A DNA stretch of 64,000 nt from positions 448,001 through 512,000 of the forward strand of contig JBIJDH010000001.1 in assembly GCA_044344255.1 (NCBI GenBank). The letters are read 5' to 3'. The stretch comes from Myxococcota bacterium. Its GTDB lineage: Bacteria > Myxococcota_A > UBA796 > UBA2385. Of this stretch, positions 1 to 4,634 are shown in pieces. The notes under the pieces are model-generated. The model saw only the letters and a list, made by a program, of their open reading frames with translations, had not been told where the DNA came from and made no database searches. Position numbers and translations under genes: made by a program. Numbering within the stretch: the stretch's first letter is position 1; each line of letters opens with the position of its first letter.

Positions 1-586
1 GCACTGCCCTTCGCCGGCCCCGCCGAGGTCGACGGCCCCTCCCTCGCGCTGCCCGCCGCCCTCGCCCTCCTCTCCCTGTGGACCGGGAAGACGGTCGCCA
101 GCGGCCTCGTCGCCAGCGACGATCTGAGCGCAGATAGGCGCGTCGCCAGCGCGGCCGCCTCGCCGAGGCGCTGGGGGCCGCGGTCGTGCTGTACACCTTC
201 GCCGCTGACACCCACGGCGTGGAGCGGACCCGGGCCGCGCCCGCCTCCACCAGGGCCGCGCCGCCGGCAAGCTCGACCAGGCCGACGAGGCGCTCGACCA
301 GACCGCCGCCGACCTCGAGGCCCACCACGGGCCCACCGCCATCGTGGCGGATCAGGCCGACGGGGAGAGCACCCAGGCCTTCTGGCTCTACGAGCGGGCC
401 CGCCTCGGCCTCCTCCGCGTCCTCGCCTGGGCCGATCGGGGCCTGGGCAAGCCCTACCTCGCAAAAGACGCCACCGCCGAGGCGGCCCTCCTCGCCGAGA
501 AGGCGCAGGGCGACTTCCGCGCGATCTTCGACCGCATCGCCGAGGGGGCCAAAGGCCCCTACCGCGCCGACGGCGAGGTCTATTAG
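1..586 (+). pseudogene. Frameshifted relic of a Lon (S16)-like protease domain with a helical/TPR-like C-terminal region; 5' end outside the window
   Basis: Frame 1 (1-150) reads EVDGPSLALPAALALLSLWTGKTVASGLVASDDLSADRRV, matching the Lon DGPSxG...A.ALLS..TG..V....A.TGE motif with G->D/R changes and no catalytic Lys. High-GC3 coding continues in frame 3 (~153-220) and then frame 2 (to TAG at 586). Confidence 0.65.
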
Positions 587-631: not shown

Positions 632-664
632 TCAAGCAATTTTCACTGGGTGAAAATTGTTTGA
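632..664. promoter_or_regulatory. AT-rich 15-bp inverted repeat (operator-like or hairpin)
   Basis: TCAAGCAATTTTCAC-TGG-GTGAAAATTGTTTGA, 14/15 paired, in a short AT-rich patch upstream of the cmr relics. Confidence 0.6.
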
Positions 665-911
665 GAGGCCTGCGCCTTGCCGACGCCCGCCCTCCCGCAG
701 TACTTCAAACGGCAGCGGGCCGACCTCGGATTCATCGCAGCCCAAGCCGATCGAAGGGACAGGGTCTCTTCCCCTCCCCTCCCCCCGCCAGCTCCTCCCA
801 CCTGCTCCTCCCCTGCCGCTCCTGCAGCGGGCGGAGCGCGGCCACTCCTTATGTCCGGGCGTCCCCTTGTCCCACCCGAGCGCACGAGCACTGCCGGTCC
901 CTCGCCCAAGG

Positions 912-1244
912 GGCTCCCTGCTCCTCCCGCGGCAGGGGCCCAGCCAGGATTCCATCGCCTCGGCGTGGCGCTGTCAGGACCTCTGGTTTGACTCCTGGCG
1001 GCTCTCGGAGCTCGTCCGGGTGGCCGCCGCGCACACTCCGGCCCTGGGCGCCGCGCTCAACACCTCCGATTCGGGCTGCCGGGACATCGTCGCACGTCAT
1101 GAGGGTTCGCTCGTGTTCGCTGACGGCGACGATGTCCTGGCGCCTTTACCCCTGTACGGAGCGCTCGACCGCGCCCGCTGCTCCCCGGGGCGCGGGTCGC
1201 CGATGTGGAGACCGCTCCGACACGAACCCAGGAGGGCGCGATGA
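912..1244 (+). pseudogene. cmr2: Collapsed Cas10/Cmr2 (type III-B) pseudogene
   Basis: GPSQDSIASAWRCQDLWFDSWRLSEL resembles the Cmr2 N-terminal GPVQxFIxxARxxxDLWxGSxLLSEL. It is fused in frame to HTPALGAALN...RDIVARHEGSLVFADGDDVLAPLP, resembling Palm2 H..LS.AL..F....IV..H.G.LIYAGGDDVLA. Confidence 0.8.
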
Positions 1245-2197
1245 TCTGGCTCCAGACCCGGGTCGAGCTCCTCACCAACCCCTACGAGGTCTTCGGGGAC
1301 CTCGACCGCGCGAACGCCCGCCAGCTCCTGGAGCAGGGGCGGTACGGCGCCGCCGCCCGGGCCTGGCAGGAGCTCGCCAACAAGACCGGTCGGCACGCCG
1401 ATCGTTGGCGCGCCGCCCTGTCTACCGGCCTCGACCAGGCCGACCGGATCAACCTCCGCGGCGCGGCGGAGACCCTGTGTGAGCTTCACCGAACCATCCA
1501 CCGCGACCGCCGCCACGATGGGCTGCTCGCCGCCGATCCCCTGGCCTCGGAGGTCTCCCTCTCCTGGCTCCCCGCGCGCGCGGTGGGCCTCGAGGCCGTG
1601 CTGGAGATCGACGGCAGCGCCGACCCCACCCGACAGACCGAGCAGCTCCTCAAGCCCGGCTTCCTCGACTTCATCGAGATGATGATCCGCTTGGCCGAGC
1701 GGCGAGATCAGGACGGCGAGCACGACCTCGGCTCCCTCTTCGCCTATCGCGCCCTGGAGGCGATCCCACAGCGCCGGCTCGCCCGCCTCGGCTTCGAGGT
1801 AGACCGCTTCGACTGGGCCGAGCTGTATCGGCGCGCCGGGGCCACCGATGATCGCGCGCGCGCCGCCCTCGTGGCGAGGCTCTTCCCCAAGACCGACATC
1901 ACGCCGGACCACGGCCTCCGGCCCACCGTAGACCGCGGGGTCGGCCTGAGCGTCCTCGCCTTTGGGCTCCGCGATCCGCTCGTGCCCGAGGCTGAGCTCC
2001 AGAAGCTGATCGGCCTCGGGAAGGCCCGAAACGCCAGCATCCTGGCCCACGGCATCCGGCAGATCCAGCCCAAGGACAGCCAAAGCCTGCTCCGGGAGAC
2101 CCGCGCGCTCTTCTCCCGGCTCCTCGAGCTCGAGGGGCTCTCCTCGGTCGAGCGCGCCGCCCTCACCCACCGCCACTCCCCGCCACCCGCGCTCTGA
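1241..2197 (+). CDS. TIGR02710-family CRISPR-associated (Csm6/Csx1-like) HEPN protein lacking the N-terminal CARF domain
   Basis: LTNPYEVFGD, YRALE and RNASILAHG motifs; AGGAGG RBS; ATGA overlap with the cmr2-relic stop. Confidence 0.75.
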   Translation: MIWLQTRVELLTNPYEVFGDLDRANARQLLEQGRYGAAARAWQELANKTGRHADRWRAALSTGLDQADRINLRGAAETLCELHRTIHRDRRHDGLLAADPLASEVSLSWLPARAVGLEAVLEIDGSADPTRQTEQLLKPGFLDFIEMMIRLAERRDQDGEHDLGSLFAYRALEAIPQRRLARLGFEVDRFDWAELYRRAGATDDRARAALVARLFPKTDITPDHGLRPTVDRGVGLSVLAFGLRDPLVPEAELQKLIGLGKARNASILAHGIRQIQPKDSQSLLRETRALFSRLLELEGLSSVERAALTHRHSPPPAL

Positions 2198-2226: not shown

Positions 2227-3072
2227 TCAGCGCGGCGGCTCGGGCTCCTGGGTCAGGGGGAAGAACTGGATGCTGATCTGATGCACGTTCTTCCGCTCCC
2301 CCGGGTCGCTGTCGCAGAGGGTGGAGACATGCTCGAGCAGGTGGAAGAGCTCCCGCCGCAGCTTCGGCAGCAGCGACTCGGGGACCGCGAGGGTGAGGCC
2401 CGTGTAGAACCGCTCGTCCCAGGGGACCCGCTCCAGGCTGGAGGCGGCGAGGCTCAGGACGCCCTCGTGGTACCGGGCGGCGACCGCGTGGTGGGCGTCT
2501 ACCCCGGTGGCCACATGGATCTCCGCGCGGACCGGCTGGAGGTCCGCGTCGAGCATGCCGAGGCGACGCAGCAGCACGAGCGCCTGCTCGATCTCCTCCT
2601 TGGCGACCGCAGCCCGGAGACGCCGCTCGATCCAAGCGGGATCCGGCGACCAGCCGGGTAGGAGCGAGAGCTCCCGCAGCGCGGGGCCGAGCCAGGTCGA
2701 GAGGTAGGTGAGCTCATCGGCGTCGATGTGGCGCGCGCCGCGGAAGCGGGGATGGGAGTAGACCTTCTCCAGGATGTCCATGCGCGCGCTGAGGTTGGTC
2801 ACGCGGCCGAGGGAGACCAGGAGCACGAAGAAGGCCCCCTCTTCCTCATCCAGCTCGAGGGGCCCCACCAGGGCCTGGGCGGTCTCGATCTGCGGGGCTC
2901 GGCGCCGCGCGAGGATGTTGGAGAAGGCCGCCGCCGAGATCCCCGCGCCCCGATGTTTGGCCAACCACGCCTTCGTCGTGAAGCTGGAGCGACCCGCCCG
3001 CCGGGCGTCGATCCAGTCCCGGAGGAAGGTCACGGGGTCGAGGTAGCGGAAGACTTGAACCTGCGTGGGCAT
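2227..3072 (-). CDS. TIGR02147-family protein (HTH + DUF4423)
   Basis: VFRYLDPVTFLRDW N-terminus and VHQISIQFFPLT C-terminus are typical of the family. Confidence 0.85.
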   Translation of the reverse strand: MPTQVQVFRYLDPVTFLRDWIDARRAGRSSFTTKAWLAKHRGAGISAAAFSNILARRRAPQIETAQALVGPLELDEEEGAFFVLLVSLGRVTNLSARMDILEKVYSHPRFRGARHIDADELTYLSTWLGPALRELSLLPGWSPDPAWIERRLRAAVAKEEIEQALVLLRRLGMLDADLQPVRAEIHVATGVDAHHAVAARYHEGVLSLAASSLERVPWDERFYTGLTLAVPESLLPKLRRELFHLLEHVSTLCDSDPGERKNVHQISIQFFPLTQEPEPPR

Positions 3073-3331: not shown

Positions 3332-3791
3332 GTGCTCACTCCCCCTGTCCGCGTCCACTCCCTCGCCCTCCTCTCTCTTTGTGGGCTCACTGTCTGTGTG
3401 CTCACTGTCTGTGAGCTCACCCTCGCCCCCACGGCGGGAGCCAGCACCCTGGTCGGAAACCCAGCCCCCGGCTTCCACTTCGGCAGCCCCTCGCCGGTCA
3501 GCATCCGAGACGCCTCCTTCAATTTCGAGGAGGTCATCCTCACTCGCTGCGACAATTCGGAGGAGGTGACCGTCTCGGCCAACCCCGCCACCAAATACCT
3601 CTTCAGCTCCGGCCCCTCGCTGACCACCGGCGCAGAACAACCACCGCCTGCACGTCGAGCTCCACGCCGAGGACTGGCTCACCACCACCACGGTCGCCAG
3701 CGCGGGCAGCGGCGTGTCGCCCAACAGCCAGTCGCACGCCGCCTGGGTCGCGGCGGTGGAGGAGGCCATCGTGATCACCTTCGCGCCCTGA
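3332..3791 (+). pseudogene. Exported protein with a +1 frameshift or internal deletion near 3630
   Basis: Signal-like N-terminus then STLVGNP. High-GC3 codons in frame 2 to 3631, then in frame 3 (QNNHRLHVELHAEDWL...VITFAP) to TGA 3789-3791. Confidence 0.5.
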
Positions 3792-3872
3792 TCCGGCCGG
3801 CTCGGCGACACCCGGTCCCCTCTCGCGCGGACGCGAGTCAGGTCGGCCGCCGCAGCTCCCACGGCCTCGGCG

Positions 3873-4634
3873 TCATCGAGCTCCACTGGCGGTGATCGGG
3901 AGCTCATAGAGCGAGATCAGCGAGCGCCGGAGGTCACTCGCCGCGGCCACCCGCAGCTCGGGGGTGGTCCAGGCCCGCACGCGGAGGGTGATCTTCTCGC
4001 CGGTGACATCATCGAAGAGGATCGACGCTGGCCGGCGGGTGTCGAAGCGGACGTCGGCCCGGAGGATGTCGTGGACCGCCTCGAGCAGGGCCTCGGGCGC
4101 GCCGCGGCGCGGCAGCGTGACCACCACGTCCACCCGCCGGGCGCCCGAGCGGCTGTGGTTGCGGATGGGGACCGCCGCCACTCGATTGTTGATGATGGTG
4201 ACCTGCTGACCGTCCTCGGTCTCGAGGGTCATCGCGAAGAGGCCGACCGCGGTGACCCGGCCCATGACGTTGTCGACCTCCACCTCGTCGCCGATGTGAA
4301 AGGGGCGCAGGGTGAGCAGGAAGGCGCCCGAGGCCACGTTCGAGAGGCTGCCTTGCAGCGCGAGGCTGATCGCGAGGCCGGAGGTGCCGAGGATGGCGAT
4401 CACGCCGCCCGAGAAGGTGCCGAGCCGCTCGAGGGCGCCGGCGATGGCCACCACCAGGACGAGCGGGAAGACCGCCGACTTGATGAGGTTGCGAACGAGG
4501 GGGTCCAGGCTGGTGCGCGCCAGCGTGTTGCCGACCGCGCCCGTGAGCCAGGAGCCCGCCGCCCAGCCGGCGCAGAGGATGCCCAAGGCCCAGACCCAAT
4601 TCAACAACGGCTGCCAGTCCATACTGGTGAACAT
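3873..4634 (-). CDS. mscS: Small-conductance mechanosensitive channel
   Basis: GLAISLALQGSLSNVASG, RPFHIGDEV, three TM segments. Confidence 0.9.
   Translation of the reverse strand: MFTSMDWQPLLNWVWALGILCAGWAAGSWLTGAVGNTLARTSLDPLVRNLIKSAVFPLVLVVAIAGALERLGTFSGGVIAILGTSGLAISLALQGSLSNVASGAFLLTLRPFHIGDEVEVDNVMGRVTAVGLFAMTLETEDGQQVTIINNRVAAVPIRNHSRSGARRVDVVVTLPRRGAPEALLEAVHDILRADVRFDTRRPASILFDDVTGEKITLRVRAWTTPELRVAAASDLRRSLISLYELPITASGAR

Follow-up and report, generated by a model that had tools for sequence, protein, structure and literature searches.

Near the start of the window, by which we mean the whole stretch of 64,000 nucleotides that was analysed, lie the remains of a cas10/cmr2 gene. 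They are preceded by a broken gene and an AT-rich palindrome and run directly into a frame for the RNase half of a Csm6-like effector (Table 1). The stretch belongs to a Myxococcota genome of 8.18 Mb (71% GC, 83 contigs, 95% complete) and is carried by lake and freshwater metagenomes. No RNA data set is listed among the carriers, which says nothing either way about expression. The best intact relatives have mostly deltaproteobacterial or Myxococcota taxon labels.

Table 1. Features at the left end of the window, with positions counted from its first letter
Position	Strand	Feature	Basis
1..586	+	Gene broken across three frames, with a Lon/ChlI-like fragment ahead of an unknown tail	Six-frame reading
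632..664	.	AT-rich palindrome (two 15-bp arms around a 3-bp spacer); likely a regulator operator from the lost cmr operon	
867..1034	+	cmr2 codons 1-56, start of Palm1 (Cmr2_N), decayed	Collinear with P0002 1-56, 68% identical
1035..1040	+	Junction 1: two codons replacing P0002 residues 57-414	P0002 alignment
1041..1178	+	cmr2 codons 415-460, middle third of Palm2, DGDD	74% identical to P0002
1178..1240	+	Junction 2 and last 21 CARF codons of the Csm6-like gene	Equals P0015 residues 178-198, one change
1230..1244	+	Shine-Dalgarno-like AGGAGG (1230-1235), internal ATG (1241) and TGA (1242-1244), overlapping as ATGA	
1241..2197	+	Open 318-codon frame, 6H and HEPN of a TIGR02710/Csm6-like CARF-HEPN RNase, CARF missing	

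A sigma-factor-like gene before the window follows residues 1-214 of the 258 residues of P0016 at 73% identity and then breaks off. In the region L001:17313-18586 (window -687 to 586) this truncated gene is fused by a third break to the frameshifted fragment that opens the window, which matches ChlI at an E-value of only 0.24 and which may be Lon-like. This third deletion and the frameshifts suggest that the whole neighbourhood is eroding. On the other side, an intact gene of the TIGR02147/DUF4423 family (2227-3072, minus strand) converges on the HEPN frame. It is followed by a short secreted-looking gene (3332-3895) with an apparent frame change near 3650 and a small tandem repeat at about 3380-3420.

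The original prediction, made from the letters of the window, had read positions 912-1244 as a cas10/cmr2 gene collapsed into a mini-gene, with an N-terminal and a Palm2 block in one frame. Both blocks are indeed Cas10/Cmr2, as profile matches and their collinearity with an intact Cmr2 (P0002) demonstrate. The 110-residue, stop-free translation matches Pfam Cmr2_N (residues 9-39, E 0.0027), Cas10-Cmr2_palm2 (residues 53-88, E 0.00075) and TIGR02577 (E 1e-8). All three matches are below the curated cut-offs and the remnant is missed by automatic annotation, as had been foreseen; neither its 125-residue nor its 195-residue reading is a called protein in a collection of 15 billion proteins. A profile that we built from 49 intact Cmr2 proteins (58 gathered, 9 duplicates removed) found the remnant frame, twice, as its sole match among 117,481 six-frame pieces of the genome. 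The E-value is 1.1e-21 for the whole and 1.5e-10 and 1.8e-9 for the single blocks, which places the identity of the remnant far beyond chance. When longer proteins were searched with the remnant, five Cmr2 proteins of 592-679 residues and no other family were found. The outcomes that would have refuted the original prediction, namely no significant Cas10/Cmr2 match or a match of both blocks to an unrelated full-length family, did not occur. The closest intact protein is P0002, a Cmr2 of 679 residues. The ancestor of both blocks was a Cas10/Cmr2 of the HD-less type III-B kind (TIGR02577; PF12469 and PF22335).

Alignment with P0002 moves the start of the homology from 912 to a TTG at 867, and the frame from there repeats the unusual N-terminal extension of P0002. 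Only 102 of the 679 P0002 residues are retained; residues 57-414 and 461-679 are missing, and residues 59-104 of the remnant equal P0002 415-460. A deletion junction had been expected near 1030, and the intact relative allowed us to place it at 1035-1040, with a net loss of 356 codons (1,068 bp) in frame. The two codons at this junction (seen in 1032-1043) resemble those expected for the next two residues of P0002, shifted by one base, which may mean an out-of-frame deletion with an adjacent one-base insertion. The Palm2 block spans positions 42-75 of the 133 positions of the profile. Compared with an intact Cmr2, the remnant is without most of Palm1, the first and last Palm2 strands and the whole C-terminal part.

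The homology to Cmr2 stops at 1178. Beyond it the predicted mini-gene consists of 21 codons and a stop that belong to the next gene and are read out of its frame. The TGA lies within the ATG-ATC of that gene. A second deletion has here brought codon 460 of cmr2 up against codon 178 of a CARF-HEPN gene, in a different frame; 177 codons of the latter are lost. The single change in 1178-1240 is Y186D, where all 8 homologues have Tyr. In the intact relatives L019, L020 and L048 the operon order is cmr2-3-1-4-5-6-CARF, where the cmr gene names are read from the translations and are partly assumed by us. The window thus resembles L020 in having a Csm6-like effector gene next in order, and the points in L020 that are equivalent to the two ends of junction 2 are about 6.5 kb apart. 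Deletion 2 removed the rest of cmr2 and, by comparison with these relatives, probably also cmr3, cmr1, cmr4, cmr5 and cmr6. The proposal of a type III-B locus reduced by deletion and point decay is therefore supported, with the correction that a second and larger deletion had been overlooked. The term mini-gene goes too far, as there is no sign of selection that keeps the frame 912-1244. No repeats flank the two junctions.

Both junctions could in principle be errors in the assembly of a metagenome bin, which is in 83 contigs and for which one of the carrier runs, X18, shows a second, diverged haplotype. We examined 8 of the 20 carrier runs, of which none was flagged as a possible source, although their studies may share one lake or campaign. 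Single contigs bridge junction 1 in at least 6 of the 8 runs and junction 2 in at least 4 of the 8. The contigs show 0-1 differing letters, and those across junction 1 have at least 31 letters on each side of it. As contigs of other runs span both junctions, they are not misassembled, and we regard the chance of such an error as negligible.

What is left of the palm domains argues against any cyclase activity. The predicted change of GGDD to DGDD is present, with GAC at 1122-1124 in place of the first Gly (P0002 G442). This change is of minor importance and secondary to deletion 1, which took most of Palm1 and the first Palm2 strand with D396 and D398. In EiCsm1 an Asp of GGDD and a second Asp are reported to hold two Mg ions, in a catalytic site between Palm1 and Palm2 (PMC11734703). 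The second Asp would lie in the lost strand and correspond to P0002 D396. A working Cas10 has two complete palms and a GGDD with the upstream metal-binding Asp, and the remnant has none of these. An AlphaFold2 model of its 125-residue product, based on an alignment of 34 sequences (mean pLDDT 68.5, pTM 0.37), consists of long helices and one beta-hairpin, with an unpaired first strand, a disordered tail and no palm sheet. If the peptide is translated at all, it is predicted to have no palm fold and to make no cyclic oligoadenylate.

Small size and a GGDD-like loop derived from Cas10 are also features of mCpol, the cyclase of Panoptes systems (PF18182), raising the question whether the peptide might be a newborn minimal cyclase of this kind, whose single, dimerising palm would combine the beginning of Palm1 with the central part of Palm2. 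Its 125 residues are near the 114 positions of the mCpol Pfam model, both Asp of GGDD are kept and junction 1 is in frame. However, PF18182 matches P0002 at residues 392-452 and neither the remnant nor any other part of the genome. As described in PMC12657230, mCpol comprises a complete palm domain, forms dimers and produces c-di-AMP, and is found next to a 2TM effector. The remnant differs in being an out-of-register splice of two half-palms that belongs to no family and covers only 34 of the 133 Palm2 positions; the strand with the first metal-binding Asp is deleted, invariant residues are altered in both blocks and the modelled peptide has no palm. Its neighbour is a CARF-less HEPN gene, and there is no transmembrane effector of the Panoptes type alongside. 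We consider a minimal cyclase to be very improbable.

The remnant also bears the marks of decay that would be expected of a pseudogene, with apparently free change at conserved residues. Out of 38 columns that are conserved at 80% or more in the 49 intact Cmr2 proteins, 8 have changed, five of them in 867-1034, and 14 of 86 scored residues are found in none of the 49. When the intact proteins were scored in the same way by leaving each out in turn, no more than 7 conserved changes and no more than 10 unseen residues were counted in 48 of the 49. One intact Cmr2 (L012) scored worse than the remnant, with 12 conserved columns and 22 unseen residues, and so the decay score alone is no proof of death. 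The open frame, on the other hand, says little about function. Of all six-frame codons in the window, 58% sit in stop-free runs of at least 125 codons, and in simulations of neutral change with 20-30 substitutions and no indels, 44-58% of the copies remained stop-free. The remnant is without a frameshift, while the gene upstream has two, and its GC3 is 0.82 compared with 0.92 in the HEPN frame. A search for short homologues of the 125-residue frame gave none at E <= 1, with 164 candidates of 68-219 residues compared.

The surroundings do not provide the other parts of a type III-B system. cmr1, cmr3, cmr4, cmr5 and cmr6, which accompany cmr2 in type III-B loci, are all absent, and so is a nearby array. 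Searches with the cmr proteins of L019, L020 and L048 (tblastn, GC-filtered ORF set) found none of the five genes elsewhere in the genome, and no RAMP match exists across this 95%-complete assembly. It likewise contains no other match to cas10, mCpol or SMODS. A search with PF22335 (Palm2) gave two further matches, which by eye are GGDEF-type proteins; these searches with PF22335, SMODS and mCpol thus found no alternative cyclase in the genome. No cas1 lies above the cut-off, with a single match below it at E 0.04. An array search had been recommended with the original prediction. There is no array near 867-2197, and a genome-wide repeat scan finds only one, on contig C74 beside a cas3 gene. 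In the 23 kb upstream, no cas6 was recognised by eye among the ORFs. These results also bear on the idea that the peptide acts as a non-catalytic decoy, which would capture Cmr3 or another subunit when a type III-B system enters the cell. The frame is open and retains the helices of the Cmr2 N-terminus, but no cmr partner was found in the genome, conserved residues are mutated and the 164 candidates included no relative of the same length. We give this idea hardly any credence.

The HEPN frame is much better preserved. Its family is that of the TIGR02710/Csm6-like CARF-6H-HEPN proteins (PF09670, PF22205; CARF1--CARF_HEPN in PADLOC), and positions 116-378 of the 384 positions of the TIGR02710 profile are matched. 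The motif of HEPN domains is defined as R-X4-6-H. It is intact here as R-X6-H at 2027-2050 (R263 to H270) and invariant in the 8 sequences of our alignment (A2). The full-length protein P0015 (516 residues) falls into the same 90% cluster as the product of this frame (P0007). Of 339 residues compared, 5 are not shared between the window and P0015, four of them within residues 199-516, to which the frame corresponds. What the frame lacks is the CARF domain (P0015 residues 1-177), and CARF profiles match P0015 and not P0007. The product would thus differ from Csm6-like RNases in having no domain to bind cyclic oligoadenylate, in a genome in which no activating cyclase was found. The isolated 6H-HEPN part of StCsm6 is described as a dimer that cuts RNA only at the unactivated rate (PMC7498309). 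By analogy, the CARF-less HEPN would have at most the basal RNase rate of an unactivated Csm6.

No loci for the HEPN frame or for P0015 were confirmed in the collections genome_contigs and viral_contigs. Among 154 genomes of the order, 5 including the window's own have a match to P0015, with no other close one. A homologue of P0015 (51%) is found at L083:250-1956, at a contig end, in a genome of the same family that has no Cmr2 match at E <= 0.001. It is possibly an orphan CARF-HEPN.

We asked whether the CARF-less 6H-HEPN could be kept as a stand-alone RNase, controlled by the palindrome and not by cyclic oligoadenylate. The palindrome would likely be bound by the WYL protein encoded on contig C74, and the cas10 remnant, dead as a protein, would serve as an open leader frame that passes ribosomes on at the ATGA overlap. 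The open 318 codons, the intact R-X6-H motif and the Shine-Dalgarno-like signal before the internal ATG fit this reading. However, the same residues, QEGAMI, lie inside the intact P0015, so that the signal and the ATG are an inherited coincidence of the coding sequence. A sigma-70 consensus promoter was not found, nor was a Shine-Dalgarno-like signal seen upstream of 867.

Constraint on the HEPN frame can be estimated from the second haplotype in run X18. A contig of 758 bases differs at 15 positions in the frame, 11 synonymous and 4 non-synonymous, or 11 of 197 synonymous sites compared with 4 of 559 non-synonymous sites (Fisher p 1.5e-4). The resulting dN/dS of about 0.13 speaks for a functional RNase, but the comparison spans time as a full-length gene and does not date the constraint. 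On the window's side there are 3 derived replacements where 16-26 are expected under neutrality, with a branch length guessed from GC polarity and no outgroup. All three, polarised with the X18 DNA, are unlike P0015, which stands against the stand-alone reading. A second form of 318 residues (P0014), with its start called at this Met too, has 12 residues unlike those of the window; 6 contigs carry P0014 and 12 the other short lineage. Across both short forms 12 positions have changed, and no conserved column is among them (p 0.29, 0.11 and 0.02, depending on the threshold), which weakly suggests that changes avoid conserved columns. The only change at an invariant column, Y186D, precedes the new Met. 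Run X18 also contains one contig that crosses junction 1 and another that has G at 1123 and hence reads GGDD. Intact and collapsed alleles may therefore occur together in one species.

The palindrome is the other argument for a gene still in use. The exact 7+3+7 core is found twice in the genome, at 632-664 and on contig C74 (G000:C74:235614, L089:5614), where it follows a WYL/WCX gene and precedes cas3. The operator core is thus common only to this locus and the WYL-cas3 locus. The letter of the C74 copy is also the X18 variant at window position 657. WYL repressors bind inverted repeats in front of defence operons (PMC9122601). The palindrome is likely the operator of a regulator of the former cmr operon, and one WYL regulator likely serves both the type I and the type III-B locus. 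The core was not found upstream of cmr2 in the intact relatives. In genome_contigs, the palindrome occurs at 25 loci from unrelated taxa, none matched in tblastn by the WYL, cas3, cmr2 or CARF queries, and by that test it is not a wide motif. Between the palindrome and cmr2, at 784-863 (L003:1367-1446), the X18 haplotype skips or replaces 78 bases right before the cmr2 start.

The CRISPR locus on C74 (L089:4436-13600, G000:C74:234436-243560), which we take to be type I-G-like, is itself broken. It consists of the WYL gene, a cas3 with a C-terminal HD domain, a gene that by eye is cas8-like, and a repeat array with about 22 units of 36 nt. The cas8-like gene is cut at 379 residues by what looks by eye like a transposase-like element or insertion sequence.

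Weighing these observations, we consider it very probable that two deletions in a type III-B operon have left the locus as a scar, in which the cas10 remnant is most likely a non-functional pseudogene. In Staphylococcus epidermidis, type III CRISPR loss by mutation or large deletion is reported to be frequent and nearly free of cost (PMC3784566). Against a plain scar stand the constraint on the HEPN frame, the near-perfect operator-like palindrome and the lack of frameshifts in the cas10 remnant. A retained stand-alone RNase nevertheless appears unlikely to us, in view of the inherited start signals, the full-length past covered by dN/dS and the merely basal activity of the isolated StCsm6 HEPN.

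The two halves of the scar appear to differ in age. We suggest that cas10 died first and drifted neutrally, so that about 7% of its non-synonymous sites now hold residues unseen in the family, and that the HEPN half became a pseudogene much more recently. There is roughly an even chance that homologous recombination with an intact allele from within the species renewed the 3' end up to junction 2. A heterology halts branch migration, and the boundary of such an exchange would fall at junction 2. An intact allele does exist (P0015) and, to judge from run X18, may occur alongside the collapsed one. Another possibility, which we hold with some doubt, is that the full-length effector stayed under selection after the death of Cas10 and that deletion 2 removed the CARF domain late, but no other cyclase that could have activated it was found in the genome.

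A search of titles and the beginnings of abstracts in the open literature found no description of a collapsed cas10 or of a natural CARF-less Csm6. Our case is like the S. epidermidis losses in its large deletions and mutations (PMC3784566). It differs from them in that the scar recurs over several years of lake samples and has parts of visibly different age. As a dead scar the locus would carry little weight, since the loss of CRISPR systems by deletion is already known. It is an example of a false miniature Cas10 that annotation misses, and should not be counted as an mCpol. The age gap between the cas10 remnant and the HEPN half, together with the intact and collapsed alleles, makes it a case from wild populations for studying both the decay of defence loci and their renewal through recombination. 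If the truncated RNase is functional, it would illustrate how an ancillary nuclease of type III can turn into a stand-alone defence gene under transcriptional control. That a dying type III-B operon gave rise in this way to a selected, Cas10-independent defence RNase, with a WYL-type operator and translation coupled to the remnant, is improbable in our estimation; if true, the locus would capture a CRISPR effector in the act of leaving second-messenger control.
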